Assembly (NCBI GenBank): GCA_017412925.1
Contig: JAFPVP010000095.1
Location: 9,981 to 73,980 of the forward strand
Length of the DNA: 64,000 nt
Direction of reading: 5' to 3'
From: Selenomonadaceae bacterium
Lineage (GTDB): Bacteria; Bacillota; Negativicutes; Selenomonadales; Selenomonadaceae
A program made the position numbers and the translations under genes. Under the pieces are notes generated by a model, which ran no database searches, had not been told where the DNA came from, and worked only from the letters and a program-made list of their open reading frames with translations. Positions 6,709 to 54,962 of the stretch are shown piece after piece (position 1 is the first letter of the stretch; each line of letters begins with the position of its first letter).

Positions 6709-6720
6709 GCAAAAAATACC

Positions 6721-6749
6721 TTGCCGATTGTCAAATTATCGTTTATAAT
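6721..6749 (+). promoter_or_regulatory. putative internal promoter ahead of cheY
   Basis: TTGCCG (6721-6726), 17-nt spacer, TATAAT (6744-6749), in the 110-nt gap that follows the inserted cassette. Confidence 0.4.
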
Positions 6750-6819
6750 CAAAAGCCTAGAATGCTTAGTGTTGTGATTGAAATTAAAACTAAATTCTTT
6801 TAAACGGGAGAGATGGATT

Positions 6820-8437: not shown

Positions 8438-8449
8438 CGGAGGTGCGTC

Positions 8450-8719: not shown

Positions 8720-8749
8720 GCAAAGTCACTTTGTCAGGAGGTCGAAGGC

Positions 8750-10634: not shown

Positions 10635-10646
10635 CGGAGGTTTTAA

Positions 10647-11039: not shown

Positions 11040-11069
11040 GAAAAATTTTTCCCGACGGAAAATCAATCG

Positions 11070-11099
11070 TTGAAGTCAACGCGGATATTGTGTTATAGT
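11070..11099 (+). promoter_or_regulatory. putative promoter ahead of flhA
   Basis: TTGAAG (11070-11075), 18-nt spacer, TATAGT (11094-11099), preceded by TG. Confidence 0.3.
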
Positions 11100-11127
11100 A
11101 GTAAAAAATTTTTTAGGAGAAAACTAA

Positions 11128-16160: not shown

Positions 16161-16192
16161 AAAACCATCTCCTTAAACTTTTTACAAAAGTT

Positions 16193-16218
16193 ATTATACC
16201 TGTTTTTTTTTTTGACAA
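16193..16218 (-). promoter_or_regulatory. putative promoter of RTX paralog 1 with an A-run in the spacer
   Basis: Minus strand: TTGTCA (16218-16213), 14-nt spacer (A10 + CAGG), TATAAT (16198-16193). The spacer is sub-optimal as sequenced. Confidence 0.4.
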
Positions 16219-16241
16219 TTCCCCACCGCAAATTTTTTTGC

Positions 16242-16271
16242 AAAAAAAAATTTCCCGCCGCAATGACGGGA
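16242..16271 (-). terminator. intrinsic terminator of RTX paralog 2
   Basis: Minus strand: TCCCGTC-ATTGC-GGCGGGA hairpin followed by AAA and T9. Confidence 0.65.
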
Positions 16272-16294
16272 AAAAATTTTTTTCCGCGCAGATT

Positions 16295-19200
16295 TTATTG
16301 CTTTTTTAAAGTGGAGCCGCTGATTTTATACGTTTCGTCGTTTATGTGGAAAGTTTTGGCGGTGAAATCTTTAAGAGTGACGGAGCCGCCACTGACTTTG
16401 AAAGTAATCGTGCCTTTGGATTTATTGTAAGAGGTCGTGAAGTCCAATCCGTCAAGTGTCAACGTGTCCTTAGAATCGAAGCCGAAGATTATATCTTTGC
16501 CGTCGCCGCTGTTGTAAATGAAAATATCCGCGCCGGCGTCGCCCCAGAGCGAATCATTGCCCGCGCCGCCAATGAGCGTGTCATTTCCTGCGTCGCCGTA
16601 AAGTTTATCATTGCCCGCGTTGCCGATGATTGAATCGTTGCCCGCCGCGCCATAGATCGTATCGGCTTTCGTGCCGCCGCTAATTATATTGTCAAGCGCG
16701 TTGCCCGTGATTTTAATGCCCTTTTTGAGCGCGGAGGCGTCGATAATTTTTGTTGTCAAATCAACGGTTACGGGCGAGGAAGTTTTACTTGTTACAATCA
16801 AACGCTTTGTGCCCGTGATGTTGAGCTTGTCCGAGTCAGCCGCACCGACCAAAGTTATCTTGCCCTTGCCGACCGTGACGATAATATTTTTGTTACTTGT
16901 CGTTGTCGAATAATAATCGCCCGAAACTGCAAGCGTCGAGGTCTTGTCGAAACCGTAAATAATATCGTTGCCGTCGCCCGACTTGTAATTAATCAAATTG
17001 TTCGCGCTCTCAAGTGAGATGCGATCATTGCCTTTGCCGCCCGTTATCGTCGCCGCCGTGCCGAAGACGCTGATTGTATCGTTGCCCTTGCCGCCGTCGA
17101 TTAAATTGTTCGCGGAGTTTGAGTTGCCGTAAATATAATCGTTACCGTCGCCGCCGAGAATGGTCGCATATTCTGCGCGGCTGTAAACGGAATCATTTCC
17201 CGCGCCGCCGTTTATTGAAGTTTTCGCGCCGCTGTTGGTAATGTAATCATTTCCTTTGTTTGCGTTGATTTTTACGGAGCCGGTTGCGTTCTCAATGTAA
17301 TCATCTTTTGTCGTGCCCTTGACGAGGGAGGAGCCGTCCCGGTTGCGGATAATGTTCCAAGTTTTATTAACGTCACTTATCGACGAAACGACATTAACTT
17401 TTTCCGCTCCGTAATCCGTCAACGTCAACTTTTTATTGTTGCTGAGCTTGAGGGTAATTTTATCGTTTGAACGCGAGGTAGCTTTTACTTTGAGCGAGCC
17501 GAGGACGATTGTATCGATTGCGTCAAAGCCGTTGAGTGTGTCGTTGCCCGCGCTGTAGACATAAGCCGTGCCGATACCTTCCTGCTTTGCAACATAATCA
17601 TTGCCCGTGCCGCCCGCAATCGTGTTGTAATCGCCGTAAGAGAAGACAGAATCATTGCCAGCCCCGCCGACGATTGAGGAATTCGCGCCGTTGTTGGTAA
17701 TGGAGTCATTGCCTTTGCCGCCGTCAATCACAGATTTTAATCCGTTGCTCGTGACAGTATCGTTATCGTCGCCGCCTTTGATTGTAACTTTCGAGCCGGC
17801 ACTGTAAATATAATTTTTCCCTGCGCCGCTGTTGATTGAAACGTTGCTGCCCGTGTTGGTGATTGAGTCGTTGCCCGCGCCGCCGTTCAATGTCACGTTG
17901 GATTCGCTGTTTACAATGGAATCGTTACCTTTGCCCGCGCTTATATTGAGTTTCTTTAACTTCGCCGCGCCGACTAAAGTTATCTTCCCGTCGCCGACCG
18001 TGATAATTAAATCGTCGCCGCTCTTGCTCTGAATGTAGGTGCCTTTGCCGCCGTCGATTTGGAGCGTCGAGGTCGTGTTGAAACCTTGAATAATGTCGTT
18101 GCCGTCGCCCGTCGTGTACTTGAATAAAACTTTCGAGCCGCCATTAGTAATGTAATCGTTGCCCGTGCCGGCGGTGATTGTGACTTTGGAGCCGCTGTTA
18201 GAAATGGTATCGTCACCTGCGCCCGCAGTGATTGTTGCATTTTCACCGTCGTAAGAGTTGGAAATATAATCGTTGCCCGCGCCGCTGTCGAGTTTTGCCT
18301 TTGTGCCCTCGTTGACGATTGAGTCGTTGCCGTCGCCGACGAGGATTTTTGCGCCGCTTCCCTTGTTATCAACAGAATCATTGCCCGCCCCGCCGACGAT
18401 TGAGACGTTCGCGCCGCTGTTAGTAATGTGGTCATCGTCTGCGCCGCCGTTTATCGTAACTTTTTGAGCGTCTTTGTTGATGATTATATCTTTACCTGCG
18501 CCGCCGTCAATTAAAGCTGTTGCGCCGCTGTTGCTGATTGAATCGTTGTCTGCCCCGCCGTTGATTGTCGAACTTGCGCCGCTGTTGCTAACGGTATCAT
18601 TGCCCGCGCCGCCATTGATTAAAACTTTCGAGCCGCTGTTGATAATTTTATCGTCGCCGTCGCCCGCGTCGAGTGTCGAATTCGTGCCGCTGTTTTTAAT
18701 TGAGTCGTTGCCCGCGCCGCTGACGATTGAGACGTTCGCGCCGCTGTTGCTAATTGTATCTTTGCCCGTGCCGCCGATAATGCTAACTTTTTTGCCGCCA
18801 GCGTTCGTGATTAAATTATCTCCGTTGCCGCCGTCAAGTGTCGAAGTCGCGCCGCTGTTGATTATGGTGTCGTTGTCGTCGCCGCCGCTGATTGAAACTT
18901 TGATGCCGCTGTTGCTGATTGAATCATTTCCGCCGCTACCGCTGATTGAGACGTTATCCGCATCGTTGAGCACGGTATCATTGCCCGCGCCGCCGACGAT
19001 TGTTTCTTGCGAGGAGTTGTTCTGGACATAATCGCCGTTATCGCTCAAATACGTTACGACCCTTTTGAATATCCCGTTAATGCTCACGGAAGGCAAAGAC
19101 GCCGCGCCGAGCAGAGTTATCTTGCTGTCGCCGACCGTTACGAAGATGTCATTACCGCTCGTCCGCCTAGCATAAGTGCCGGTGCCGTCGCCGATTACAA

Positions 19201-20473
19201 GGATTGCGCTTTCGTTAAAGCCTTCGATAGTGTCGTTACCGTCGCCCGTCGTATACTTGAACAGAACTTTTTCGCCGTCGTAGTTGCGAATGTAATCATC
19301 ACCTGCGCCGCTTTCGATTGTAGCTCTTTCATTCCATTGGTTAATGATTGTATCATTGCCCGCGCCGCCGACGATTGACGAGCTGTCGCCGCCGTAGCCG
19401 TTGTCAATGTAATCATCACCCGCGCCCGAATTAATTGTAGCTTTAGAACCGCCGTTGCTGATTGAGTCGTTGCCTGCGCCGCCATTGATTGACATGTTCG
19501 AGCCGGCGTCATGAGTACCTCCGTCGTAAAAGCCATTTTCGATCGTGTCGTTGCCGTCCCCGCCGTCGACTATAGAGTTATCGCCGCTGTGGTAAATTAA
19601 ATCATTACCCGCGCCGCCATTTATTGAAACTTGCGAGCCTTCGTTATAGATATAATCGTTACCGTCGCTGGCGTTGATTGAAACGTTTTCGCCGCCGTCG
19701 TTGCGAATGGAATCGTCGCCCGCGCCACCGTCGATTGTAACTTTTGAGCCGCCGCTGTTTTTAATGGAATCATTGCCCGCACCGCTAACGATTGACGAGT
19801 TTTCGCCTTCGTTTTCAATAGTGTCTGCGCCGTCGCCGCCAAGGAGCGTCGCAAAGTCGCTTTCGTATCTGTTAAATATGTAGTCATTGCCGTCGCCACT
19901 ATCGACTAAGCTGTTCTTGCCTTCGTTCCAAATGGAATCATTGCCCGCACCGCTGACGATTGACGAGTTTTCGCCGCCGTTTTCAATGGTATCGTTGCCT
20001 TCGCCGCCGTCGATTAAGCTGTTCTCGCCTTCCCAGCGGTTGTAAATGTAATCATCGCCCGCGCCCGCCTCGATTGAAACGTTCGAGCCGGCGTCGTAAG
20101 AGTAAGCGTCGTAGGAGCCGTTTTTAATCGTGTCGTCACCGTCGCCTCCGACGAGCAGAGCATAGTCGCCCTTCTCGTTTTCAATGTTGTCGTTGTCCGC
20201 GCCGCCGTAAATTTGAACATAAGCCGCCTCATCATTCCAGAAGGAGCCGTTGCCGCGCATAATCCTGTTGTCGCCCGAAATGATAATGTCGTCGCCTTCT
20301 TCAGGGTTGCCGTCCTCGTCGTAGTTGATCGTGTATCCGATGACGAGTTCCTTGTAATTGAAATTGCTTGGCGCGTAATAACGCTCAGTTGTCGAGTCAT
20401 TGAAAGTCTTTGTGCCCGTCGTGAATTCATAAGTAGCCGAGAACCTTTGGAGATTAAACGTGAACACCTTCAT
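16295..20473 (-). CDS. giant RTX-like calcium-binding repeat protein, paralog 2
   Basis: 1392 aa from ATG 20473 (AAGGAGAGG RBS 6 nt upstream; the ORF-track start at 20521 has none). Long arrays of ~19-aa units of the type xVSI(N/D)GGAGND(S/T/Y)IxNxGxx. Three GDGND-I-x-GF...ITL(V/L)GAA modules. Family C-terminal tail ...TFHINDETYKISGSTLKKQ. No Sec signal. Confidence 0.85.
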   Translation of the reverse strand: MKVFTFNLQRFSATYEFTTGTKTFNDSTTERYYAPSNFNYKELVIGYTINYDEDGNPEEGDDIIISGDNRIMRGNGSFWNDEAAYVQIYGGADNDNIENEKGDYALLVGGDGDDTIKNGSYDAYSYDAGSNVSIEAGAGDDYIYNRWEGENSLIDGGEGNDTIENGGENSSIVSGAGNDSIWNEGKNSLVDSGDGNDYIFNRYESDFATLLGGDGADTIENEGENSSIVSGAGNDSIKNSGGSKVTIDGGAGDDSIRNDGGENVSINASDGNDYIYNEGSQVSINGGAGNDLIYHSGDNSIVDGGDGNDTIENGFYDGGTHDAGSNMSINGGAGNDSISNGGSKATINSGAGDDYIDNGYGGDSSSIVGGAGNDTIINQWNERATIESGAGDDYIRNYDGEKVLFKYTTGDGNDTIEGFNESAILVIGDGTGTYARRTSGNDIFVTVGDSKITLLGAASLPSVSINGIFKRVVTYLSDNGDYVQNNSSQETIVGGAGNDTVLNDADNVSISGSGGNDSISNSGIKVSISGGDDNDTIINSGATSTLDGGNGDNLITNAGGKKVSIIGGTGKDTISNSGANVSIVSGAGNDSIKNSGTNSTLDAGDGDDKIINSGSKVLINGGAGNDTVSNSGASSTINGGADNDSISNSGATALIDGGAGKDIIINKDAQKVTINGGADDDHITNSGANVSIVGGAGNDSVDNKGSGAKILVGDGNDSIVNEGTKAKLDSGAGNDYISNSYDGENATITAGAGDDTISNSGSKVTITAGTGNDYITNGGSKVLFKYTTGDGNDIIQGFNTTSTLQIDGGKGTYIQSKSGDDLIITVGDGKITLVGAAKLKKLNISAGKGNDSIVNSESNVTLNGGAGNDSITNTGSNVSINSGAGKNYIYSAGSKVTIKGGDDNDTVTSNGLKSVIDGGKGNDSITNNGANSSIVGGAGNDSVFSYGDYNTIAGGTGNDYVAKQEGIGTAYVYSAGNDTLNGFDAIDTIVLGSLKVKATSRSNDKITLKLSNNKKLTLTDYGAEKVNVVSSISDVNKTWNIIRNRDGSSLVKGTTKDDYIENATGSVKINANKGNDYITNSGAKTSINGGAGNDSVYSRAEYATILGGDGNDYIYGNSNSANNLIDGGKGNDTISVFGTAATITGGKGNDRISLESANNLINYKSGDGNDIIYGFDKTSTLAVSGDYYSTTTSNKNIIVTVGKGKITLVGAADSDKLNITGTKRLIVTSKTSSPVTVDLTTKIIDASALKKGIKITGNALDNIISGGTKADTIYGAAGNDSIIGNAGNDKLYGDAGNDTLIGGAGNDSLWGDAGADIFIYNSGDGKDIIFGFDSKDTLTLDGLDFTTSYNKSKGTITFKVSGGSVTLKDFTAKTFHINDETYKISGSTLKKQ

Positions 20474-20519
20474 AAAAATCCTCTCCTTATACAAAAATTT
20501 TTTGGGGTGTTTTATATGC

Positions 20520-20549
20520 ATTATAGTAATTGTTTTTTTTTTTTGTCAA
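20520..20549 (-). promoter_or_regulatory. putative strong sigma70 promoter of RTX paralog 2 with an A-run in the spacer
   Basis: Minus strand: TTGACA (20549-20544), 18-nt spacer (A11 + CAATTAC), TATAAT (20525-20520). Confidence 0.55.
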
Positions 20550-20573
20550 TTCCCTACCGCAAATTTTTTTCGC

Positions 20574-20601
20574 AAAAAAAAATTCCCGCCTTTCGACGGG
20601 A
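20574..20601 (-). terminator. intrinsic terminator of RTX paralog 3
   Basis: Minus strand: TCCCG-TCGAAAGG-CGGGA hairpin followed by a T-run (A9 on the + strand at 20574-20582). Confidence 0.55.
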
Positions 20602-20620
20602 AAAAATTTCCGCGCAGATT

Positions 20621-22636
20621 TTATTGCTTAACGAGCTTTGAACCGCTGATTTTATACGTGTCGTCGTTTATGTTGAAAGTTTTGGCGGTAAAATCTTTCA
20701 GCGTTAAAGTTCCGTCTTCAAATTTAAACGTGACGGCAGAATTTTTATAAGTCGCCGTGAAATCAAGAGAATCAAGCGTCAAAGTGTCCTTTGCGTCGAA
20801 GCCGAAGATAATATCTTTGCCGGTGCCCGCCGAGTAAATGAAAACGTCCGCGCCGGCGTCGCCCCAGAGTGAATCATTGCCCGCGCCGCCGATAAGCGTA
20901 TCATTTCCCGCGCCGCCTTTGAGCGTGTCGCTACCAAGTCCGCCGTAAAGTTTATCGTTGCCCTTGTTGCCGATAATCGAATCGTTTCCGCCCTCGCCGT
21001 AAATTATATCGTTCTTGCTACCGCCCAAAATCACGTTGTCGAGCTTGTTGCCGACGATTTTAACCGCCGACGTGCGTTTAGAGGCGTCCGCCGTTCCAAT
21101 ATCCGCCGAAAGTGTCACGGGTGAAGTTGTTTTGTTATTAATCGTCAAAGTCGTCGCGCCGCTGACAACCGTCGTGTATTCCTTGCCTTTGGAATTAATC
21201 ATGCTGAGTTTTTTATCCGCGCCGTTTTTAACAGTCAACGTGCCCTTGCCGATAGTGAAGACGACATCGGAGCCGCTTAAAGTCGCCTTTGAAATCGCCG
21301 AGCCGACGGAAATTTTATCGCCCGCCGAATAATCGCTGATAACGTCCTTGCCCGCCGTGTAAATGAAAATATCGTTGCCTGCGCCGCCTTTTAACGTGTC
21401 ATTGCCCTTTCCGCCGTTCAAAGTGTCGTTTCCTTTGCCGCCGAGCAAATAATCGTTGCCCGCGCCGCTGATAATTGAATTTTCAAGCGCGTTGCCCGTG
21501 ATTTTTATATTTTTCTTGAGCGCGGAGGCTTTAACGTGCTTAACGGTGCTTTCAAAGTCCGCCAAATCCAGCGTGTCTTCCGTGTAGTCCGCCGTGACAG
21601 TCAAAACCGTTTTCTTTGCATTATAAGAGACGCCGTCGGGCACGCCGTCCGAATAATTTTTTGCGAGATAACGAAGACGAGTATACCCTGTAACTGAATT
21701 ATTGTTGTCCCTGTTGACAAAATCGCCATAGTTTTGCGAGGCGTCATCATAACCGCCGACGATTGCGCAAAGTCCCTCAAAAACATCTTTTGGCAAGTCT
21801 TCGAGATAGGCGATATTGGACTTCAAAGCAATTTCTGTAAAAGCCATTAAAAATAATCTGTCCAGATAGTTGGTAAATGGCGCAGTGTTGCCGTAACCTG
21901 TTGTCACATAAGGATAAGCCGTGCGATTGTAATATTGTTTACTGTCTAACGTTCCGTTTTTGTCGTTTTCGGTTAAATTATTGAGCAAATTGGCGTTGAG
22001 TATAATTTTAGCCTTGGAAAGGCGTCCCAAATCGTATTCAAAGTATATTGACATCGCGGTATGAATATTCATCGGATTCCAGTAGTCAAATTCTATGTCG
22101 ACTTCTTTGAGATTAGATGAATCGTCTGTAAAATTTATTCCGAGTGATTCGTTAATCAAGTCGACGGATTCGGGAATCCACCAATTATAAAGCGCACGAG
22201 TGACGAGTTTTTGTTTCGCGAGGAAATTTGCGCCGCTGTAGCCGAAATTTTCTCCGGCATCGACATCACTTTTCTCGACGTAGCTTATATTGAATTTTAA
22301 ACCGTTTTTCGTGAAGGAGTTGTATTGTGAGTTGGTGAGTTTTGTAGCCTTTGCGCTTTCGGGAACGATAGATTCGGCAGTTTTGGTAGTTTTACCACCG
22401 GCATCCGAACCTGTTATCGCACCTGTATCGGTATTAGTAATGCGAACGCCGCAATTTTGTTCGGCAAAATTTTGAGAAGCAACACCATAAGACGCATTGG
22501 TATATTTCTCTCTAAACACGTCATAACTGATTGCGCCCACAGCTTTAAAAGCCTCATCGGCAGCTTCTTCGCCGGTTTTTTTTGTTTCCACGAGAGTCTT
22601 GACGAATTTTTTGATAACTCCAACGGGTGTTGACAT
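20621..22636 (-). CDS. RTX-type calcium-binding repeat protein, paralog 3 (same N-terminal domain as paralog 1)
   Basis: 671 aa, AAGGAGA RBS. The N-terminus MSTPVGVIKKFV...NTDTGAITGSDAGG...ALYNWWIPESVDLINESLGINFTD aligns with paralog 1. RTX nonapeptides present. Family tail ...[19 protein letters not shown]. Confidence 0.85.
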   Translation of the reverse strand: MSTPVGVIKKFVKTLVETKKTGEEAADEAFKAVGAISYDVFREKYTNASYGVASQNFAEQNCGVRITNTDTGAITGSDAGGKTTKTAESIVPESAKATKLTNSQYNSFTKNGLKFNISYVEKSDVDAGENFGYSGANFLAKQKLVTRALYNWWIPESVDLINESLGINFTDDSSNLKEVDIEFDYWNPMNIHTAMSIYFEYDLGRLSKAKIILNANLLNNLTENDKNGTLDSKQYYNRTAYPYVTTGYGNTAPFTNYLDRLFLMAFTEIALKSNIAYLEDLPKDVFEGLCAIVGGYDDASQNYGDFVNRDNNNSVTGYTRLRYLAKNYSDGVPDGVSYNAKKTVLTVTADYTEDTLDLADFESTVKHVKASALKKNIKITGNALENSIISGAGNDYLLGGKGNDTLNGGKGNDTLKGGAGNDIFIYTAGKDVISDYSAGDKISVGSAISKATLSGSDVVFTIGKGTLTVKNGADKKLSMINSKGKEYTTVVSGATTLTINNKTTSPVTLSADIGTADASKRTSAVKIVGNKLDNVILGGSKNDIIYGEGGNDSIIGNKGNDKLYGGLGSDTLKGGAGNDTLIGGAGNDSLWGDAGADVFIYSAGTGKDIIFGFDAKDTLTLDSLDFTATYKNSAVTFKFEDGTLTLKDFTAKTFNINDDTYKISGSKLVKQ

Positions 22637-22764
22637 ACAAATCTCATCTCCTTAAAGGTTTCTCCAATGATATTACTAAAAATAACTTAATGAAAGAAAC
22701 CATAGGTAATACTTTTTGAACATTATACAGGTCGGAAAAAATTTTTGGTGTCCTGCCGGGACAC

Positions 22765-22791
22765 AAAAAAATCCCGCCGCTTTGACGGGAT
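22765..22791 (-). terminator. intrinsic terminator of RTX paralog 4
   Basis: Minus strand: ATCCCGTC-AAAGC-GGCGGGAT followed by T7. A second hairpin, GTGTCC-CGGCA-GGACAC, follows at 22748-22764. Confidence 0.65.
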
Positions 22792-22811
22792 TAAAAGTTT
22801 CAGTGCAGATT

Positions 22812-24755
22812 TTATTGTTTTTTGAAGCTTGAGCCGCTGATTTTATACGTTTCGTCGTTAATGTTAAAGGTTGTGGCTGTAAAATTCTTCAAAGTGATTG
22901 AACCGCTGCCAACCGTCAACGTAACAGCTCCATTTTTGTAAGCGGGCGTGAAATCGTCCATAATTTGTAAGAAATCGTCGTTGTCAAAGCCGAAAATAAC
23001 ATCTTTGCCGTCGCCGGTCATGTAAACAAAAGTATCTGCGCCCGCGTCGCCCCAAAGACTGTCATTTCCTTTGCCGCCCCAAATATTATCGTCGCCGTCG
23101 CCGCCGTAAATCTTATCGTTGCCAGCATTGCCGAGCAAATAATCATTTCCGCCCGCGCCGCGAATTGTATCGCCCTTCGAGCCGCCGTTTATCGTGTTTG
23201 CGATGTCGTTGCCGATAATTTCAACGGCGGTTTTGCGTTTCGAGGCATTTATAACTTTAATCGTGCTCCCCGCCGTGATTGGCGACTTTATATCGTCGGT
23301 TATGCTCAAAGTCGTGCCTCCAACAACCGTAACATAAGATTCTCCGTCAGAATCAGTCATTTTGAGCGTTTTTCCTTTGCCATCTTTGATAGTTAGGGTG
23401 CCTTTGCCGACTGTGAAGACAACATTAGAGCTTTTTACCGCAGATTTGGAGATTTCCGCGCCTAAAGCAATCGTATCGCCCGTTTCGTAGTCGGTGATCG
23501 TATCTTTTCCGCCCGTGTAGAAGAAAATATCGTTGCCCGCACCGCCCGTGAGCGTGTCATTGCCCGTTCCGCCCGCAAGTGAATCGTTTCCAGCACCGCC
23601 GAGGAGTTTATCATTGCCTTTTCCGCCGCTTAAAGTATCATTTCCAGCATCTCCCGCGAGTGAATCGTTGCCTGACTCGCCGAAAAGTTTATCGTTGCCC
23701 TTGCCGCCGCGAATTGTATCGTTATTTGAGCCGCCGTTTATCGTGTTTGCGATGTTATTGCCGATTATTTGAATTGGAGTCGTGCGTTTCGTGGCATTTA
23801 TAACTTTTATCTCGTTTCCTGCCGTCACGGGCGATTTTGTCTTGTCATTTACGGTCAATTCGGTCTCTCCGCTGACAATCGTATCATATTCCTTGCCAGA
23901 CGAATTAATAATGCTCAATTTCTTGCCTTTGCCGTCTTTAACAGTCAAATTTCCATTGCCAATAGTAAAAATAACGTCCGAACCGCTTAAATTTGCCTTT
24001 GAAATCGCCGCGGAGAGCTTAATTTTGTCTTCGCCCGCCGAATAATCGCTGATAACGTCCTTTCCACCCGTATAAATGAAAATATCGTTGCCTGCGCCGC
24101 CTGTAAGTGAATCATTTCCAGCTCCGCCGGTCAGACTGTCGTTGCCTTTGCCGCCTTTAATCAAATCATTGCCGCTACCGCCGATTAAGTAATCATTGCC
24201 GCTGCCGCCGACGATTGAATTATTCAGCGCGTTGCCCGTGATTTTTATAGCTTTGGTACGTGAGGAAGCGTCGATTTTTTCAATATCGGAGTCGACAGTT
24301 ATTTTTGAAGGGTCTGCATTAGTAATTTTCAAAAAATACGGCGTATCCCATTCGCAAATGAAATAATCGCCGCTGAAGAAGTACCTGTCATTCCATTTAT
24401 CTATGAACTTTCCATTTCTGGGAACAATACATGCATAATTTTCTGCTCCACGTTCACCATGATTATTTGGCTCACCACTTGCCCAATTTGTGTATGTTAC
24501 GGCTTCGCCCGTTACCCAAGTCCAATTTCCTTCATGTTCGGCATCGCTAAATCCAATGTAATATATCTTGTCTTCATTTCGACTGAAAAGATAGCTAACG
24601 ATTGCATTATTCTCTTCAGAATCATTGATAACAGCGAGGTGCCCGCCAAGAGATTCGCAATAAGCTTCTGCCGCTTCCCAAGTATCGGCTACATTCGAGT
24701 AGACATAATATTTGTGTCCGTCGTAAACGAAGGCGTCGGAAGGAATTTTATTCAT
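22812..24755 (-). CDS. C-type-lectin-domain / RTX calcium-binding repeat fusion protein, paralog 4
   Basis: 647 aa. The N-terminal ~135 aa has CTLD hallmarks (WEAAEAYCESLGGHLAVINDSEEN...WTW..G....YTNWASGEPNN...ENYACI...WNDRYF...FICEW). The rest is RTX repeats plus modules shared with paralogs 1 and 3. Family tail ...TFNINDETYKISGSSFKKQ. Confidence 0.85.
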   Translation of the reverse strand: MNKIPSDAFVYDGHKYYVYSNVADTWEAAEAYCESLGGHLAVINDSEENNAIVSYLFSRNEDKIYYIGFSDAEHEGNWTWVTGEAVTYTNWASGEPNNHGERGAENYACIVPRNGKFIDKWNDRYFFSGDYFICEWDTPYFLKITNADPSKITVDSDIEKIDASSRTKAIKITGNALNNSIVGGSGNDYLIGGSGNDLIKGGKGNDSLTGGAGNDSLTGGAGNDIFIYTGGKDVISDYSAGEDKIKLSAAISKANLSGSDVIFTIGNGNLTVKDGKGKKLSIINSSGKEYDTIVSGETELTVNDKTKSPVTAGNEIKVINATKRTTPIQIIGNNIANTINGGSNNDTIRGGKGNDKLFGESGNDSLAGDAGNDTLSGGKGNDKLLGGAGNDSLAGGTGNDTLTGGAGNDIFFYTGGKDTITDYETGDTIALGAEISKSAVKSSNVVFTVGKGTLTIKDGKGKTLKMTDSDGESYVTVVGGTTLSITDDIKSPITAGSTIKVINASKRKTAVEIIGNDIANTINGGSKGDTIRGAGGNDYLLGNAGNDKIYGGDGDDNIWGGKGNDSLWGDAGADTFVYMTGDGKDVIFGFDNDDFLQIMDDFTPAYKNGAVTLTVGSGSITLKNFTATTFNINDETYKISGSSFKKQ

Positions 24756-24807
24756 AAAATCATCTCCTCTTCAAAATATTGTTATTGTTATTACTAAACT
24801 CAGCCAT

Positions 24808-24868
24808 AAAATAGCCTCCTCACTAAAAATAAACGATATCGACAGAAATTTTTGCCGTGCAGACCTCC
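24808..24868 (-). promoter_or_regulatory. conserved 5' leader, copy 1 (upstream of the lectin-RTX gene)
   Basis: About 60 nt, nearly identical to 30010-30072. Minus strand: GGAGGTCTGCACGGCAAAAATTTCTGTCGATATCGTTTATTTTTAGTGAGGAGGCTATTTT-ATG. Confidence 0.6.
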
Positions 24869-24908
24869 TTTTTTACTAAAGAACAAAGAAAACAATACTT
24901 TCCCGCTT

Positions 24909-24939
24909 ATTATCCCCCCCCCCAATGCCCCGTTGTCAA
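24909..24939 (-). promoter_or_regulatory. putative promoter of the lectin-RTX gene with a G-run in the spacer
   Basis: Minus strand: TTGACA (24939-24934), 19-nt spacer (ACGGGGCATT + G9), GATAAT (24914-24909). The C10 run on the + strand is at 24914-24923. Confidence 0.45.
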
Positions 24940-24989
24940 GACTTTTTATAAAAAATTTTAAAAAAAACATGCGCGGCACTTAAAATAAT

Positions 24990-25023
24990 AAAAAAAAGCG
25001 GCTCCGCCATGTGACGAAGCCGT
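24990..25023 (-). terminator. intrinsic terminator of RTX paralog 5
   Basis: Minus strand: CGGCTTCG-TCACATGG-CGGAGCCG (one mismatch) followed by T8. Confidence 0.6.
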
Positions 25024-25046
25024 TATTTTTGTGTTTAAGCAGATTT

Positions 25047-27014
25047 TTATTGCTTAACGAGCTTTGAACCGCTGATTTTATACGTGTCGCTGTTAATGTG
25101 GAAGGTCGTAGCGGTAAATTCTTTAAGAGTGACCGAACCACCGCTAACTTTGAACGTAATCGCGTCATTTTTACTGTTGTAAGACGCCGTGAAGGCTAAA
25201 TTATCAAAAGTGAGCGTGTCTCCGTCTTCAAAACCGTAAATTATATCCTTGCCGTCGCCTTTCGCGTAGTAAAAATTATCTTTTCCGTCGTCGCCCCATA
25301 AACTGTCATTTCCTGCGCCACCCCACAACGAATCTCTGCCCGTGCCGCCTTTTATGCAGTCATTTCCTACGCCGCCGAGTAAAATATCGCCGTCTGCGCC
25401 GCCGTCGAGCGTGTCATTGCCTTTTCCGCCAACTAAACTGTCGTTTCCAGCCTCGCCAAGCAATTTATCATTGCCATCGCTGCCGTCAATCGTATCATTG
25501 CCCGCTCCTCCGAGCAAATTATCATTTCCTTTGCCGCCGTTAATCGTATCGTTGCCTTTGTCGCCGTTTAAGCTGTCATTTCCCGCGCCGCCGACTAATG
25601 TATCGTCATCATCGCCGCCAGAAATCGTATCGTCGCCATTTCCGCCAACTAAACTGTCATAACCCTTGTCTCCGAGTAAAATATCGTCGTCATCGCCGCC
25701 GGAAAGCGTATCGTCGCCTTGTCCGCCGCTTAAACTGTCATTTCCCTCGTCGCCAATCAAAATATCGTCGCCAGTGTAGCCTGAAAGCGTGTCATTGCCT
25801 TCGCCGCCGTTTAAACTGTCATTTCCTGCGCCGCCAAGCAAAATATCGTTATCATCGCCGCCGTCTAGCGTATCATTGCCCGCTCCGCCGTTTAAACTGT
25901 CGTGATTCGTGCCGCCGAGCAAAATATCATTGCCCGCGCCGCCGGAAAGCGTATCTTTTCCGTCTCCGCCGTACAAACTATCGTTTCCGCCGTTTCCGAA
26001 CAGTTTATCGTTGCCAATTCCGCCCCAAAGCGTATCTTTAGCCTTGCCGCCGACTATAGAATTGTTTTGCTCGTTGCCTTTTATCTTGATTGCCTTCGTT
26101 CGAGCCGTTCCGTCGATTGTTACGATGTCCGAATTGACCGTTACGACAGATTTATCCGAGTTCGTGACGATTTTAAGCGCAGTTTCTGCTTTTTTGCTGA
26201 CAATGTTGACCTTCGACAAGTCAGCCGCGCCGATTAAAGTAATTTTTCCGTCTCCAACAGTGATAATAACATCATTACCGCTCTTAGTCGTTGATAAATT
26301 CGCACCAGAAATGCTAAGAGTCGAAGTTTCGTTAAAACCTTCGATTGAATCGTTGCCGTCGCCATTTTTATAGGTAAGTAAAGCCTCTCTGCCGTTTCCG
26401 TACAAAATAATTTGGTCGTCGCCCTTGCCGCCAGTGATAGTTGCTTTATTCGCTCCGTTTTTAATGACATCAGCACCGTTTCCGCCGTCGAGTGTCATAC
26501 AAGATGCCCAGCCGTTTGAAATTGTATCCGCTCCATCGCCGCCGTAAATCGCTGTCAGCGAGCTGTAACTGTAATAATTGACAATTAAATCGTAACTCGC
26601 GCCGCCGTATATCGTTACTTCCGCGCCTTGATTAGAAATAGTGTCTGCGCCGTCGCCGCCGTCAATTTTGCAGCGATAACCGTAGTTTGAAATGTTATCT
26701 TCGCCTTCGCCGCCATAAATTGAAGTTAGCGAGGCGGAACTTTGGTAGTTGTAGAGATAATCTTTTCCCGATTCGCCGTCAATTATAGTTTTTGCAGCGT
26801 AGTTTAAGATTTTATCTGCGCCGTCGCCGCCATAAACCGCACTAATCGAGCCGTTACTGTCGTTGCAAAGGAAATCATCGCCGGATTTGCCATTTATCGT
26901 TACTTTCACGCCGCCAGAACAATCAATACTCAACCAATCGCCATTAAAAATTGAATCATCGCTGTTTGTGCCGGCAAGCAATGTATTCGAGGCGGTATTT
27001 TCTATCGTCGCCAT
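25047..27014 (-). CDS. RTX-type calcium-binding repeat protein, paralog 5
   Basis: 655 aa, AAGGAGG RBS. N-terminus [20 protein letters not shown]. Dense GGxGNDxL / GGDDDD repeats. The C-terminal half is near-identical to paralog 6. Tail ...[19 protein letters not shown]. Confidence 0.85.
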
Positions 27015-27031
27015 GAATTTAGCCTCCTTAT

Positions 27032-27057
27032 AAAAAAATCCCGCCGATTTGACGGGA
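27032..27057 (-). terminator. intrinsic terminator (possibly leaky) between RTX paralogs 6 and 5
   Basis: Minus strand: TCCCGTC-AAATC-GGCGGGA followed by T7. It is followed at once by the RBS of paralog 5, with no separate promoter visible. Confidence 0.6.
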
Positions 27058-27079
27058 AAAAAAGTTTCAGTGCAGATTT

Positions 27080-28798
27080 TTATTGCTTAACGAGCTTTGA
27101 ACCGCTGATTTTGTACGTGTCGCTGTTAATGTTGAATGTTGTCGCGGTGAAATCTTTAAGAGTGACCGAACCACCGCTGACTTTGAATGTAATTGCGTCA
27201 TTTTTACTGTTGTAAGACGCCGTGAACGCGAGATTATCAAAAGTGAGCGTGTCTTTGCTGTCGAAGCCGAAAATAACGTCTTTGCCGTCGCCTTTTGCGT
27301 AGAAAAATTTATCCGCGCCGTCGTCGCCCCATAAACTGTCATTTCCTGCGCCGCCCCACAAAGAATCTTTGCCCGTTCCGCCTTTTATGCAGTCATTTCC
27401 CGCGCCGCCGACTAATTTATCGCTATCCGCGCCACCGTCGAGCATATCATTGCCTTTTCCGCCGTTTAAGCTGTCATTTCCCGCGCTTCCGAGCAAATTA
27501 TCATTTCCCGCGCCGCCGTCGAGCGTATCATTGCCTTTTCCGCCGTTTAAGCTGTCATTTCCCGCGCCGCCGAACAATTCATCATCATCATCGCCGCCGG
27601 AGAGCGTATCGTTGCCATTTCCGCCTACTAAACTGTCATAACCCTTGTCTCCGAGTAAAATATCGTCGTCATCGCCGCCAGAAATCGTATCGTCGCCTTG
27701 TCCGCCGCTCAAACTGTCATTTCCCTCGTCGCCAATCAAAATATCGTCGCCAGTGTAGCCTGAAAGCGTATCATCGCCCTCTCCGCCGTTTAAACTGTCA
27801 TTTCCTGCGCCGCCGAGTAAAATATCGTCGTCATCGCCGCCGTCGAGCGTGTCATTGCCGATTCCGCCGTTCAAACTGTCATCATTACTGCCTCCGAGCA
27901 GAAAATCATTGCCTTTTCCGCCGTCGAGCGTATCTTTTCCGTCTCCGCCGTACAAACTATCATTTCCAGCGTTTCCGAGCAAAATATCGTTGCCGACGCC
28001 GCCCCAAAGTGTATCTTTTCCGCTTCCGCCGCTTATCGAGTTCGCTAATTTGTTGCCTTTTATCTTGATTGCCTTAGTTCTGGCGGTCGCGTTGATTGTT
28101 ACCACCGAAGAATTGACCGTTACAAGCGCGGCGTCAGAATTTGTGACAGTTTTAAGCGCAGTTTCCGACGGAGTGCCCTTTATGTTGATAGAATAGTTGC
28201 TAGACGCGCCGACGAGCGTAATATTCCCCGTTCCGACCGTGACGATGACATTATCGCCGCTTTTTTTGGTTGCGTAGGTGCCGCTCGCGATTGAAAGCGT
28301 GTCATTGTCGTTGAAACCGTAAATTATATTCTTTCCGTCGCCGTCATTGTAAATAATTACGTTTTTATCGGCATTCGCGCCCAAACTTATTTGATTATTG
28401 CCCGCACCGGCGTTGATTGTAGCATTTTCACTTTCATTTATAATGGTATCCGAGCCGGATTCACCATTTATTTTAATATTTGTGCCTTCTGAACCTTCAT
28501 TATATATATAATCGTTACCTTCGCCGGCGTTTATCGTTACGTTATAGCCATTTGATGTGCTGTGAATTGAATCATTACCTTTTCCGCCATTTATTGTGAC
28601 ATTATCGGCTCCATTATAAATGTCATCGTTGCCATCACCGCCGTAGATTATAACTTTTTCTGCAGCAGAATAATTACTAACTTCATCATCGCCATTTGCA
28701 GCACTAATCGTGACGTTTGAGCCGTTATTTTCGATATAATCATCGCTACTCGTGCCTGCAACCAGAGTATTGTTATCCCAATTACTAAAATTAGCCAT
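27080..28798 (-). CDS. RTX-type calcium-binding repeat protein, paralog 6
   Basis: 572 aa from ATG 28798 (AGGAGG RBS; the ORF-track start at 28846 lies inside the Uma2 3' end). N-terminus [20 protein letters not shown]. Tail ...[19 protein letters not shown]. Confidence 0.85.
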
Positions 28799-28830
28799 AA
28801 AACTACCTCCTAAATAAAAATCTTTAAAAA

Positions 28831-29415
28831 TTATCTGTAACCCCACTTGAAAATATATTTTAGCGGTATTTTTAAGCCTTCGAGAGTTTTAACCGGCACT
28901 TCATGCTTAATTTCGGCTTTTTCCTCGTCCGTCAGCAACTCCAATTCTTTATCGTCGAAGAGAATATATTCATCATCAAGATAATATTTGCCTTCATGCA
29001 GAAAATAAACGCTAATTACCTTCATGTACGGGTCGATAATCCAATATTCGCTAACGCCTTGAGCCTCATAAATGTCTTTTTTAATAGTGAGGTCATTTTT
29101 GCGCGTAGATTTCGATAAAACTTCGACGATCATATCAGGAACTCCATAAATTCCTCTGAACCAGTCGATAATCGACGAATTTTTTTCCGTAACGACTGAC
29201 AAATCGGGCTTTAAAGTTGTACCGTCTGGAAAATGAACGTCGGTATTGTCAGAAAACACGTATCCGCTATCGTTTTCGTCCAAAAAGCTCCCGATAATCA
29301 TTCCTAGACGCATAATTACTCCACCGTGAGTGGGATTCGGTGCAGGTGCCATAATTTTTTTACCTCTGATGATTTCATAGGACGGATAAAGAAGTCGTTC
29401 ATTGATAACCTCCAT
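28831..29415 (-). CDS. Uma2-family (DUF820, PD-(D/E)XK) putative endonuclease
   Basis: ...PDLSVV...[39 protein letters not shown]... is the Uma2 core pattern. ATG 29415 preferred, with an AGGAAG RBS. Confidence 0.8.
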
Positions 29416-29427
29416 AAAAACCACTTC

Positions 29428-30009
29428 CTATTCAAAGTACCAGCCAAAAATATTTCTAATTTTGACCTTGAAGCCGTCCAAAACAGCAACTGGAATTTCA
29501 AATTGGACTTCAGCGCGTTCTTCATCAGTCATATTCTCTAAATCATTGTCTTTGTAGTTCTGATATACATTGTCGAGAAAATATTTGCCGTCGCGAAGAA
29601 GATAAACTTCAATGCTCTCGCTCCAAGGATTGATAAGCCAATATTCTTTGACACCGTTGCGCTCGTAAACGTCTTTTTTAATCGTCATGTCTCGTTTCAT
29701 GGTTGAACGGGAAAAAATTTCTGCAACCATATCTGGTACGCCATAAAAATTTTCATCTTCATTGTTGAAGACGATATTATCATTTGCCGCGCCGATAAAT
29801 ATAAAATCTGGGCGCAAAGTATTTCCGTCGGGGAGATTAACATCAAAGTTATCGGAAAATGACGAGCCAAGCTTGTTAATGAATGCATGATTGCCAATCG
29901 TGAACATTAATCTGCCTACAATTTTACCATGACGCTTAAAAGGACTCGGTGCCATAAATTTTTCCCCCTCGATAAGCTCATAATCGTCGCGAATATCGAA
30001 AGCGAGCAT
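29428..30009 (-). CDS. Uma2-family (DUF820, PD-(D/E)XK) putative endonuclease, tandem paralog
   Basis: ...RPDFIFI...GVPDMVAEIFSRSTMKRDMTIKKDVYERNGVKEYWLINP... AAGGAGG RBS. Confidence 0.8.
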   Translation of the reverse strand: MLAFDIRDDYELIEGEKFMAPSPFKRHGKIVGRLMFTIGNHAFINKLGSSFSDNFDVNLPDGNTLRPDFIFIGAANDNIVFNNEDENFYGVPDMVAEIFSRSTMKRDMTIKKDVYERNGVKEYWLINPWSESIEVYLLRDGKYFLDNVYQNYKDNDLENMTDEERAEVQFEIPVAVLDGFKVKIRNIFGWYFE

Positions 30010-30072
30010 AAAATCACCTCCTTAACTAAAAATCAACCGACATCGACAGAAATTTTTGCCATTCACACCTCC
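30010..30072 (-). promoter_or_regulatory. conserved 5' leader, copy 2 (upstream of the Uma2-Uma2-RTX operon)
   Basis: Minus strand: GGAGGTGTGAATGGCAAAAATTTCTGTCGATGTCGGTTGATTTTTAGTTAAGGAGGTGATTTT-ATG. Aligns with 24808-24868 through the start codon. Confidence 0.6.
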
Positions 30073-30112
30073 TCCGCGCCGAAAAACCAATGGAAACGAG
30101 ATTTTCACAACG

Positions 30113-30140
30113 ATTATACACTATCGCGCCGATTTATCAA
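30113..30140 (-). promoter_or_regulatory. putative sigma70 promoter of the Uma2-Uma2-RTX6(-RTX5) transcription unit
   Basis: Minus strand: TTGATA (30140-30135), 16-nt spacer, TATAAT (30118-30113). Confidence 0.5.
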
Positions 30141-30145
30141 GGTTT

Positions 30146-30470
30146 CCAATGAAAATTTAAGTGTTGAGCTGAAATTTTTTGTTTTGAAACTGATTTTCTG
30201 GCTGTGAAACTGCTTTTCGGGCGTCGAAACCGATTTTTTGGCTGTGAAACGGATTTTGGAGCTGTGAAACGGATTTTTGAGTGTTGAAACGGATTTTTGA
30301 GTGTTGAAACGGATTTTTGAGCCGCGAAACGGAATTTTGAGCCTCGAAACGGAATTTTGAGCCTCGAAACGGAATTTTGAGCTGTGAACGGGCTTTGAAA
30401 GTGATTTTCGGGCGTTGAAAGTGATTTTGGGGCTCGAAAGTGGGGTTTGAGGGTGCGATTTTAGGGTCAA
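30146..30470. repeat. phased 20-bp tandem repeat array (~16 units, consensus GAAACGGATTTTTGAGYNNN), non-coding
   Basis: Unit starts fall exactly every 20 bp at 30186, 30206 ... 30386. There are two perfect adjacent duplicates (30266/30286 and 30326/30346). Units degenerate toward both ends. Confidence 0.85.
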
Positions 30471-30621
30471 AGTGCAAATTCCCATATTTGGGAATTGAAC
30501 ACTAAAAAAAGCCGCGTCACAATGCGGTTTTTTCGGGCATAAAAAAAACCCCCTGTTTTTGGGGTGATTTTGAGCGTGCAAAGTTCCAATTCCCAAATAC
30601 GGGAATTTGACATTTGGGCGC

Positions 30622-30651
30622 AAAAAAAGCCCCCGACGCTTTGTCGAGGGC
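30622..30651 (-). terminator. intrinsic terminator of the GH32 gene
   Basis: Minus strand: GCCCTCGAC-AAAGC-GTCGGGGGC followed by T7. Confidence 0.7.
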
Positions 30652-30663
30652 GAAAAACTTCTT

Positions 30664-32214
30664 TTAGTCTTTAAGGAACGGGAATTTTTCTTTCAAATCT
30701 TCGGGCGTGTCCTTAATGTGGGGGTGCGGCAGTCCGAAATCGAGTTTGTAATACTCCAGCGAATCAATTACAAGCGTTTCAGCCTCTGGCGTGAAGATAA
30801 TCTTCTGGGAAGTGCGTTTAGGATAAATTCTCGCCGAAATAACTTCCTCGCCGTCGTTGATGAAGACTTCGATGCTTGATCTGTCGATAAAAATATGGAG
30901 TTTGAGCTTATCTTGGGGTTCGATTTGAATTTCGCGGACGGAAGCAATGCCGTTAATGACTTCTCCGGCGTTTGTGCGGTCGAGTTTAAAGATTCCGTTC
31001 GCATTGTAAGTCAAAATGGTCTGTTCGAGTTCGGAAGCGCGCAAGGCGATAGAAAATTTCTTAGATTTTGCGGCGTCAATCGTCAAAACGAGTTCATAAG
31101 CCTCGCCGGAAACGCCTTCAAAGGTTGTCGCCTCGTCAATCACAAGGTTTCCGAAGGTAATTGGCTTCCATTTGCGGAGTTTTTCGAGTTCTTTAGCGGG
31201 CGTGGAGAAAATTTTGCCGTTTTTAACGTGGAGTACGCGCGGAACAGTCATCATACCAGCCCAACCGTCCTTAGCTTCGTGCATATCGACGTTCCACATG
31301 TCAAGCCAGGCAATCATAATGGTTCGACCGTCGGGAGTTTGCATAATTTGGGGCGCGTAGAAGTCAAAACCCCTGTCGAGGTACTGAAAATCGCCGTGTT
31401 TAAAGATTCCGGTCTTATAATTGAGCTTACCGATAAGAACTCCGGCTGCTTTGTCGTGATAAAAGGTTCCGTCGTCGGTTTTCAAGTCCATAGGCGAGAA
31501 AATCAGGACATCTTGCCCGTCAATTTCCGCAAAGTTGGGACATTCCCACATTCCGCCGAGATTTCCTTCAGAACGGGCGGAAATTGCTTTTAATCGCCAA
31601 GAATTGGTCAAATCTTTGGAAACGAACAGCAAAATTTGCCCGTGAGCCATATCTGGGGTGCGCGAGCCGAGAACGGCGTAATATTTTCCGTTATGTTCCC
31701 AAACTTTGGGGTCGCGAATGTCATTTATAGAAATTTCTTCGCTTTTAACGTCGCTGTCCTCGATAACGGGATTTTTTTCGGATTTTTCAAAGTGGATGCC
31801 GTCTTCGGAGGACGCTAGGCACTGAAATTCGATATGCCCGTAACCGACAGCGGCTTCTTCTTCGGGAGTTGCGCTCAAATGACCGGTGTACATGAGGTAA
31901 AGTTTGCCATCTTTCTCGATAGCGGAGCCGGAAAAGCAGCCGCCGCCCTGTTCATAGGGTTTTTCGGGCTTCAAAGCGATGGGCAAGTGCTTCCAATAGG
32001 CTAAATCGTCTGAAACGGCGTGTCCCCAGTGCATCGGACCCCATTGCGGCGCGTAGGGGTAATGCTGATAGAAAAAATGGTACTGATTTTTGTAAAAACA
32101 CATGCCGTTAGGGTCATTGCACCAACCAAACGGCGCGGCGAGGTGATAACGCGGATACCAGCGGGCGTCCGTCACCTGCGAAAAGGTTTTGAAGTCTAAA
32201 ATTGCTTCTGACAT
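30664..32214 (-). CDS. GH32 sucrose-6-phosphate hydrolase / beta-fructofuranosidase
   Basis: 516 aa with the GH32 catalytic motifs WCNDPNG (nucleophile block), RDPKV and MWECPNF. AGGAGG RBS. Confidence 0.9.
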   Translation of the reverse strand: MSEAILDFKTFSQVTDARWYPRYHLAAPFGWCNDPNGMCFYKNQYHFFYQHYPYAPQWGPMHWGHAVSDDLAYWKHLPIALKPEKPYEQGGGCFSGSAIEKDGKLYLMYTGHLSATPEEEAAVGYGHIEFQCLASSEDGIHFEKSEKNPVIEDSDVKSEEISINDIRDPKVWEHNGKYYAVLGSRTPDMAHGQILLFVSKDLTNSWRLKAISARSEGNLGGMWECPNFAEIDGQDVLIFSPMDLKTDDGTFYHDKAAGVLIGKLNYKTGIFKHGDFQYLDRGFDFYAPQIMQTPDGRTIMIAWLDMWNVDMHEAKDGWAGMMTVPRVLHVKNGKIFSTPAKELEKLRKWKPITFGNLVIDEATTFEGVSGEAYELVLTIDAAKSKKFSIALRASELEQTILTYNANGIFKLDRTNAGEVINGIASVREIQIEPQDKLKLHIFIDRSSIEVFINDGEEVISARIYPKRTSQKIIFTPEAETLVIDSLEYYKLDFGLPHPHIKDTPEDLKEKFPFLKD

Positions 32215-44849: not shown

Positions 44850-44869
44850 AAGTAAATCCTCCTTCTACT

Positions 44870-49264: not shown

Positions 49265-49288
49265 GGCAGGCAACTCCTCTCAAAAAAT

Positions 49289-50803: not shown

Positions 50804-50804
50804 A

Positions 50805-51776: not shown

Positions 51777-51777
51777 C

Positions 51778-54229: not shown

Positions 54230-54233
54230 CGCC

Positions 54234-54959: not shown

Positions 54960-54962
54960 CGT

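Follow-up and report, generated by a model that had tools for sequence, protein, structure and literature searches.

The spacer between a GH32 (sucrose-6-phosphate hydrolase) gene and two Uma2-family genes in a Selenomonadaceae bacterium (assembly GCA_017412925.1, contig JAFPVP010000095.1, positions 9,981 to 73,980; this 64,000-nucleotide stretch is referred to below as the window) holds an array of 20-bp tandem repeats, which lies upstream of the promoter of a large cluster of RTX genes. The locus raises two questions: what kind of element the array is, and whether it influences the promoter beside it. It is a real, non-coding 20-bp tandem repeat, and it makes up the expandable part of a composite repeat that occupies intergenic spacers and is specific to a single lineage of rumen Selenomonadaceae. 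We hold this anatomical and evolutionary part of the account with considerable confidence. A regulatory effect on the promoter is a tentative proposal, which our analysis suggests may be correct but which we place somewhat below an even chance.

Tandem Repeats Finder detected a period-20 array at 30174-30388 (10.8 copies, 81% matches, score 158), followed by a degenerate period-20 stretch at 30389-30442 (2.7 copies). On direct reading the core units start at exact 20-bp steps (30186, 30206 ... 30366), and two pairs of adjacent units, 30266/30286 and 30326/30346, are perfect duplicates, just as the first-pass annotation, made from the sequence alone, had described. Its figure of about 16 units is reached only by counting the degenerate flanks; the well-formed units number ten. 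The 17-mer GAAACGGATTTTTGAGC, allowing up to three mismatches, was found eight times inside the array and once elsewhere in the 64 kb, against a mean of 0.6 matches in a shuffle control in which none of 100 shuffles reached nine. An 11-bp partial unit at 30386 (GAACGGGCTTT) causes a register shift, and the resulting 31-bp ‘unit plus 11 bp’ variant was seen again at two other loci, L006 and L025. The array had also been described as ending 6 bp from the -35 hexamer. This could not be maintained, as the segment 30146-30185 is only vaguely unit-like and the first well-formed unit begins 45 bp from the -35. A gap of about 44 bp between the last good unit and the -35 is repeated at several loci, a value that hinges on how a unit is defined and on which we do not rely. 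Within the proximal stretch 30146-30185, AAATTTTC (11-17 bp upstream of the -35) bears what we take to be a resemblance to an UP element.

Two long open reading frames (ORFs) cross the array (Table 1). They are artefacts of the stop-free repeat strand, as had been proposed. A phmmer search with the array ORF against 1.84 billion representative sequences gave 27 hits, of which only P0001 and P0127 are close relatives, both being variants of the same locus; the other 25, judged from their sequences, resemble ORFs running through tandem repeats. A protein search with the 169-amino acid (aa) ORF recovered the same-locus variant alone, and a synthetic translation of the consensus array found no matches. 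The artefactual nature of the ORFs is also evident from the strain alleles, whose length differences of 20 or 40 bp are not divisible by three, so that the frame is shifted between them. Public metagenome annotations (L001-L015) call a 169-aa or 148-aa ‘protein’ over the array and the adjacent hairpins. Such calls of 148-169 aa in public assemblies are artefacts and should be masked.

Exact-protein look-ups of the Uma2 and GH32 products retrieved this locus in more than ten ruminant gut metagenome assemblies. Ten contigs have a spacer of 654 bp. A 634-bp form was met in one contig, which was recovered as both L003 and L015, and a 614-bp form in two independent samples (L005 and L014). Contigs that are otherwise identical carry 13, 12 or 11 units, and alignment of the alleles showed that they differ by the loss of exactly one copy of each perfect duplicate, plus one single-nucleotide polymorphism. 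Neighbouring units of the window array differ less from one another than distant ones do (3.6 versus 5.2 mismatches), which argues for local duplication. Whole units are gained and lost, with a preference for perfect duplicates, in the pattern of slipped-strand mispairing or unequal recombination. Because the array changes by whole units, strains hold different alleles and related species may be array-free.

The comparison of copy number between strains that the first-pass annotation had suggested bears this out over larger distances. In L006, which is about 92% identical over the promoter region and the Uma2 gene, the same promoter is preceded by about 20 units arranged in another order. RGIG6564 (L019, about 90% identical) has about eight units and RGIG7246 (L018, about 81% identical) about six. 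In L033/L034 (about 84% identical) the GH32 gene, terminator, one hairpin, promoter, the same leader and the RTX gene are present with no units at all. The array is quickly gained, lost and resized. As a side observation, positions 1-18 of the L006 contig (GCA_018396375.1) read GATGTGTATAAGAGACAG, and the contig end may truncate its array; this 18-nucleotide start is presumably a Nextera adapter remnant.

How far does the element extend beyond this locus? A stringent two-unit pattern, scanned over 185,579 species-representative genomes, found true relatives only in four rumen Selenomonadaceae/Quinella metagenome-assembled genomes (MAGs), at five loci. A scan of JGI metagenomes added one further locus, L025, and hits to the spurious ORF added three (L041/42, L043/44 and L045), three phmmer hits (P0144, P0145 and P0147) having been traced to further arrays of the family. 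The RGIG7246 MAG carries two loci (L018 and L020), and so does one metagenome (L044 and L045). The distinct loci total eight, all of them intergenic, and in the genome and metagenome scans true family members were confined to rumen Selenomonadaceae/Quinella MAGs and rumen metagenomes. Pattern matches outside the Selenomonadaceae (L016, L022-L024 and L026-L030) were discarded as unrelated short or different repeats, and GH32 orthologue loci (L032, L035-L040) have other neighbours and no array.

All eight independent loci share one order: a distal module, the array, at most 150 bp, and then a promoter-like site with the gene start. Orientation is also identical in all eight (two-sided binomial p = 0.008 if random), and the strand that codes for the downstream gene carries the units as GCTCCAAAATCNGTTTCA. 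Broadly, the units follow the consensus TGAAAC-T-GATTTTGGAG-NNN, with the window variant ending in ...TTTTTGAGC. The downstream genes encode RTX proteins (the window group, L020 and L043), a TPR protein (L017), a methylase-like protein (L021), TypA (L025), a CMD-family protein (L041) and an uncharacterised protein (L045). Because it is present upstream of unrelated genes, the element is not RTX-specific, and the earlier view that the array serves the distal RTX unit in particular has to be given up. A link between the array and Uma2 was likewise rejected, Uma2 being absent from all other array loci.

No published account of such a repeat in Selenomonadaceae or Quinella came to light, and the paper on Quinella genomes is silent on repeats, RTX genes and promoters. 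The array family is previously undescribed: it is a dispersed intergenic variable-number tandem repeat (VNTR), or promoter-upstream repeat, that falls outside any named family, the general phenomenon being known. Together with its companion module, the array provides a ready-made VNTR marker for strain tracking in metagenomes. Quinella is a group linked to low-methane sheep (PMC9585023).

The distribution of the family also bears on the idea of an iteron-type replication or partition site, or of a degenerate CRISPR-like array. The units are contiguous, without spacers. Plasmid iterons are direct repeats of 17-22 bp lying about two helical turns apart, and direct repeats of about 20 bp with a similar spacing presumably recall them. 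However, the array lies among flagellar, glycolytic and outer-membrane genes, which is a chromosomal setting. The window showed neither rep, par or cas genes nor origin features, and several loci occur per genome, including positions beside rplU and typA. Searches of plasmid and phage sequences (blastn) and of viral contigs (pattern scan) gave no relatives, the sole viral match being a chance one inside a gene. This explanation is effectively refuted.

The distal module, which lies between the array and the GH32 gene and had gone unnoticed in the first-pass annotation, comprises two long AT-rich hairpins (H1 and H2) with terminators and a short box. The folding predicted for the hairpin/terminator region is much stronger than that of shuffled sequence (z = -5.5 and -5.9), and compensatory changes are found in the hairpin stems, 9 of the 13 predicted pairs being altered on both sides. 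Aligned across nine loci, the module has a mean column identity of 66%. With nhmmer its copies have E values of 1e-29 to 1e-40 (1.9e-36 for the window copy), with one copy per locus that always adjoins the array; no copies beyond one per locus were found in about 330 kb of sequence, much of which represents duplicates of the window locus. In eight of nine non-redundant loci, aligned or scanned, the module stands next to the array, L025 being an array without the canonical module. The sequence directly after each hairpin is itself unit-like. The hairpin arms read AATTCCC..GGGAATT (30477-30496, 30588-30607), with AAATCCC..GGGATTT in relatives. They presumably recall the Noc-binding half-sites of Bacillus subtilis, as some units (GTGAAAC) do a parS half-site. 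Toward the downstream gene, the general layout starts with the upstream gene's terminator or 5' region and runs through H2, the short box with or without an extra terminator, the small terminator T1 and H1 to three to more than 20 of the 20-bp units, then degenerate A/T-rich units and a sigma-70-type promoter followed by the gene.

Conservation within the unit provides a further line of evidence. Across 43 units, positions 1-4, 7-12, 14 and 16 are nearly invariant and positions 6, 13 and 17-19 are free, and the per-position variability of the window and L006 arrays correlates with that of the other loci (Spearman 0.71, p=4e-4). This shared pattern is unlike random decay after duplication and points to selection on the sequence, either for A/T tracts or for a protein motif, or to very recent common descent. 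It is one difficulty for the view that the array is a neutral or selfish minisatellite, a slippage by-product seeded by unit-like sequence flanking REP/BOX-like hairpins and tolerated in promoter spacers with no effect on transcription. Such a by-product would not be expected to conserve the same unit positions across independent arrays and species, to keep one orientation to the downstream gene at eight of eight loci, or to retain its core motif across lineages with only about 80% flanking-gene identity. Several features do fit a minisatellite: the unit-like sequence that follows each hairpin, the gradual decay at both array ends with no defined proximal boundary, the fast turnover of unit order between 92%-identical strains, the unrelated genes that arrays precede, and the missing array at the orthologous RTX promoter of a related species. 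We keep it as the main alternative, though a rather unlikely one.

The same conservation could reflect protein binding. Two conserved blocks, TGAAAC and then GATTTT.G.G, make up the core of the unit and are separated by free positions, and the spacing of about two turns would place successive sites on nearly the same helix face. In an operator array, each unit would bind a sequence-specific protein, for example a direct-repeat response regulator, that polymerises along the array and activates or represses the promoter. GATTTTG occurs also in the right arms of the hairpins, and in gene orientation the unit contains (A/T)CAGTT, which we take to be the core of the LytTR box and which serves as a lead only. 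A LytTR operator consists of two 9-bp direct repeats with a 12-bp spacer and is accompanied by its cognate regulator, whereas the period here is 20 bp instead of the 21 bp of LytTR sites, the 10-20 contiguous sites are far above known operators, and no LytTR gene is present in the window. No regulator gene of any kind was found among the window ORFs of at least 150 aa scanned against Pfam, and the window has no solitary or paired units elsewhere, though a regulon would have them. Moreover, 16 of the 20 positions are conserved, beyond what a single half-site needs. The suggestion that the array is a set of regulator-binding sites, made when the locus was first read, thus has no positive evidence from regulator genes or solitary units in the window, and we consider an operator array improbable.

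At the RNA level, neither strand of the array is predicted to fold better than its shuffles (z = -1.4 and 0.0). This is as expected if a plus-strand transcript, antisense to the RTX unit and ending at H1 and T1, were a sponge offering repeated single-stranded motifs to a protein or RNA. T1 (GCG-N7-8-GCGG then T5-6) is indeed terminator-oriented for the plus strand in nine of nine aligned loci, and many units contain GGA. However, the T1 stems are only 3-4 bp, and no plus-strand promoter-like site was found inside or upstream of the array, manual inspection included. GGA/GGAG is not conserved in the units, position 6 being free and the window having TGAG versus GGAG at other loci, and a CsrA or Shine-Dalgarno sponge was rejected on this ground. 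A search of Rfam at E up to 10 returned sub-threshold noise only, with no family near its gathering score. A non-coding RNA is accordingly a very improbable explanation.

We prefer an action at the level of the DNA. A dinucleotide wedge model with Bolshoy-type parameters, which yields approximate values, ranks the array first in curvature among the 200-bp stretches of the window, with a mean of 42.8 degrees per 31 bp versus a window mean of 20.1 (99.85th percentile) and an end-to-end/contour ratio of 0.69 versus 0.92. The curvature that the first-pass annotation had anticipated is therefore predicted, but it follows a superhelical path and is not planar: repeats of an idealised 21-bp unit would form a closed circle (ratio 0.10), whereas with the actual 20-bp unit the path is a superhelix (0.69). 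Likewise, the T/A tracts are phased at about two turns as had been noted, though only approximately, some 34 degrees being lost per unit. In the family as a whole, predicted curvature is above the local mean in all 11 arrays and at least about one standard deviation above the local background in 7 of the 11.

Three features make an action at the DNA level the most likely one: the array lies directly against the upstream side of the promoter, its A/T tracts are phased, and the curvature predicted for it is strong and superhelical. The array would be neither transcribed as a structured RNA nor translated. It could change the contacts of the upstream DNA with RNA polymerase (through the C-terminal domain of the alpha subunit, or through wrapping) or with a nucleoid protein. 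The number of units would then set a graded, heritable promoter output, as a rheostat and not as an ON/OFF switch, and the hairpin/terminator module would insulate the promoter from read-through. The combined statement, that of a slippage-prone, curved, BOX/VNTR-like upstream repeat modulating the promoter quantitatively, comes in our estimate close to an even chance without quite attaining it. A bolder version is unlikely. It would make module and array a hitherto unknown, lineage-specific cis-regulatory cassette of uncultured rumen Selenomonadaceae related to Quinella, the units a multi-site platform for a dedicated DNA-binding protein or for RNA polymerase wrapping, and the unit number a heritable dial for the promoters of RTX surface or secreted proteins and of other genes, in a dispersed rheostat family as opposed to a single contingency locus.

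Several points weigh against a regulatory role. The regulatory step is one that we purely infer. The loss of about 34 degrees of helical phase with each 20-bp period means that the bends are not additive in one plane, and in the approximate wedge model L041 shows no curvature excess and L018 only a weak one. At L033/L034 the orthologous RTX promoter (TTGAAA-16-TATAAT) has no array and is of equal consensus quality, and because of this L033 promoter the array appears dispensable for promoter function. The heterogeneity of the downstream genes fits a selfish or neutral element equally well. Because 10 of 14 near-identical contigs carry one same allele, the array is far less mutable than classic contingency loci. 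Finally, short-read metagenome assemblies may mis-size repeats; against such mis-sizing, the units are individually distinguishable and the alleles recur across independent samples.

Known systems offer instructive comparisons. In Mannheimia haemolytica, variable 10-bp A-tract repeats (ACAAAAAACA) lie in 2-4 copies upstream of the core promoter of the leukotoxin, an RTX toxin (PMC2697988). Both systems have A-tract tandem repeats upstream of an RTX core promoter in a ruminant-associated host, and in both copy number varies by lineage, the perfect repeats are the unstable ones, and the repeats are found in one lineage while related species keep the promoter without them (PMC2697988). The differences concern the unit (20 bp in 3 to more than 20 copies here, versus 10 bp, or one helical turn, in 2-4 copies), the host (a Negativicute and not a member of the Pasteurellaceae) and the distribution, a dispersed family with a hairpin/terminator module that also occurs at non-RTX genes versus a single locus. 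If the regulatory proposal is correct, the array would represent a dispersed upstream-repeat rheostat of 20-bp units controlling a large RTX gene cluster among others, and its parallel with the leukotoxin promoter repeats of another ruminant bacterium (PMC2697988) would suggest convergent evolution.

The T-tract of sabA in Helicobacter pylori is a rheostat that gives graded output through local DNA structure and the alignment of a UP-like element with RNA polymerase, and the same has been proposed for several genes (PMC4081817). As in our array, it is a slippage-prone repeat upstream of the -35 (PMC4081817). The sabA repeat, however, is a mononucleotide tract beside the -35 that changes in single-bp steps rotating the helix, whereas steps here are of 20 bp (about -34 degrees, 68 Angstrom) and the well-formed units begin about 45 bp away; the rheostat is known from function there and proposed from sequence here. 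Among the features of the promoter-rheostat class, the array shows both a repeat upstream of a core promoter, which holds at eight loci, and strain differences by whole units.

Structurally, the nearest known element is the pneumococcal BOX, boxA-(boxB)n-boxC, for which effects on neighbouring gene expression have been reported and which is usable for strain typing; like our element, it is a composite, dispersed extragenic repeat with one tandem module of variable copy number and with artefactual ORFs (PMC3049150). Dispersed extragenic copies, as in BOX elements and miniature inverted-repeat transposable elements, are present (two loci in one MAG, eight distinct loci). Such elements have conserved modules on both flanks or terminal inverted repeats, with a target-site duplication; here the conserved module is on one side only, the proximal side decays into locus-specific sequence, and no terminal inverted repeats were seen. 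The element further differs from BOX in having no sequence similarity to it, a unit of 20 bp versus 45 bp for boxB, a low apparent density (one per locus in about 330 kb, a large part of which duplicates the window locus, versus more than 100 per pneumococcal genome) and an array that is apparently untranscribed upstream DNA. The mycobacterial interspersed repetitive units (MIRUs) of Mycobacterium tuberculosis are 46-101 bp long and lie inside operons, and the bacterial interspersed mosaic elements (BIMEs) of enterobacteria alternate inverted palindromic units. Like MIRU-VNTR and REP/BIME, our element belongs to a dispersed intergenic family of tandem or mosaic repeats whose copy number depends on the strain and which is associated with palindromic units and with positions near terminators; it differs in consisting of short direct repeats beside two to three palindromes on the promoter side of the spacer. 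Attenuation by BIMEs is mentioned in PMC3049150.

Table 1. Features of the repeat-bearing spacer and its surroundings (positions in the window)
Feature	Position	Strand	Description
Spacer	30010-30663		654 bp; between the GH32 gene (30664-32214, -) and the Uma2 pair (-)
Core array	30186-30385	.	10 head-to-tail 20-bp units, GAAAC-N-GATTTT-N-GAG-NNNN on + strand; from Tandem Repeats Finder, 17-mer count and direct reading
Partial and degenerate distal units	30386-30455	.	11-bp partial unit 30386-30396 (GAACGGGCTTT), then three GAAAGTG-type units at 30397, 30417 and 30436
Proximal A/T-rich stretch	30146-30185	.	About two degenerate, barely recognisable units between -35 and first good unit
Spurious 169-aa ORF	30114-30623	-	Reads through array and hairpins; annotated as a gene in public assemblies
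Spurious 106-aa ORF	30157-30477	-	Crosses array
Conserved distal module	30439-30619	-	H1, T1, minus-strand terminator, box and H2; about 170 bp
Hairpin H1	30459-30478/30488-30507 (arms)		Core AATTCCCATATTTGGGAATT, 30477-30496
Terminator T1	30504-30537		Small, bidirectional
Minus-strand terminator	30565-30548	-	Followed by T-run
GGGGTGATTTTGAGC box	30561-30575		Part of distal module
Hairpin H2	30588-30607 (core)		Core AATTCCCAAATACGGGAATT
GH32 intrinsic terminator	30629-30651	-	9-bp stem, 7 GC pairs, T7
Sigma-70-type promoter	30113-30140	-	TTGATA-16-TATAAT, 11/12 consensus positions; serves Uma2-Uma2-RTX unit
5' leader	30010-30112	-	Upstream Shine-Dalgarno-like GGAGGT and motif GGCAAAAATTTCTGTCGA, common to RTX loci; no Rfam match
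Two Uma2-family genes	29428-30009, 28831-29424	-	PF05685, E about 1e-27 each; first genes after promoter
Six consecutive RTX-repeat (HemolysinCabind) genes	13338-28846	-	Short gaps between; downstream of Uma2 pair

The minus-strand promoter that had been placed with its TTGATA at 30140-30135 is confirmed and is conserved in related strains and species: hexamers and spacing are identical in L006, L019 and L018 although flank identity is 80-92%. Sigma-54 and sigma-28 promoters in the hairpins or promoter region were dismissed on manual inspection, the spacings misfitting the consensus sequences. A 10-nt inverted repeat (30088-30097 / 30142-30151, CAATGGAAAC / GTTTCCAATG) exactly brackets the -35/-10 promoter; it is largely kept in L006 and L019 and not in L018, and it may represent an operator pair. 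An invertible promoter was rejected, as these arms are 44 bp apart, not conserved in L018 and too short for a known invertase switch.

In the leader, and in those of L006, L019, L018, L033 and L043, the sequence GGCAAAAATTTCT(T)GTCGA comes after GGAGGT, some 50 nt ahead of the real ribosome-binding site. The leader also holds a short upstream ORF, whose frame is not conserved. This conserved RTX leader may be a cis-regulatory one. Between the promoter/leader and the first RTX gene, Uma2 shows presence/absence polymorphism: the window has two genes and L006 a single one, while L019, L018 and L033 lack them. The first RTX gene (27080-28846 in the window) encodes 572, 545 or 599 aa in otherwise near-identical contigs (L001-L007), and its 27/81-nt nonapeptide-repeat DNA (27392-28035 by Tandem Repeats Finder) appears to be copy-number polymorphic as well.

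Farther away, flagellar export genes for FliL/M/N-Y/P/R, FlhB and FlhA (2355-13215) run convergently into the RTX cluster, and the region 42768-55736 contains BamA, TamB, TolC-like, HlyD-like and Mla genes. The gene content of the window fits a diderm, flagellated Negativicute. A separate 21-bp tandem repeat of 4.1 copies (44584-44669) lies inside the Omp85/BamA-like gene (42768-44849, minus strand).

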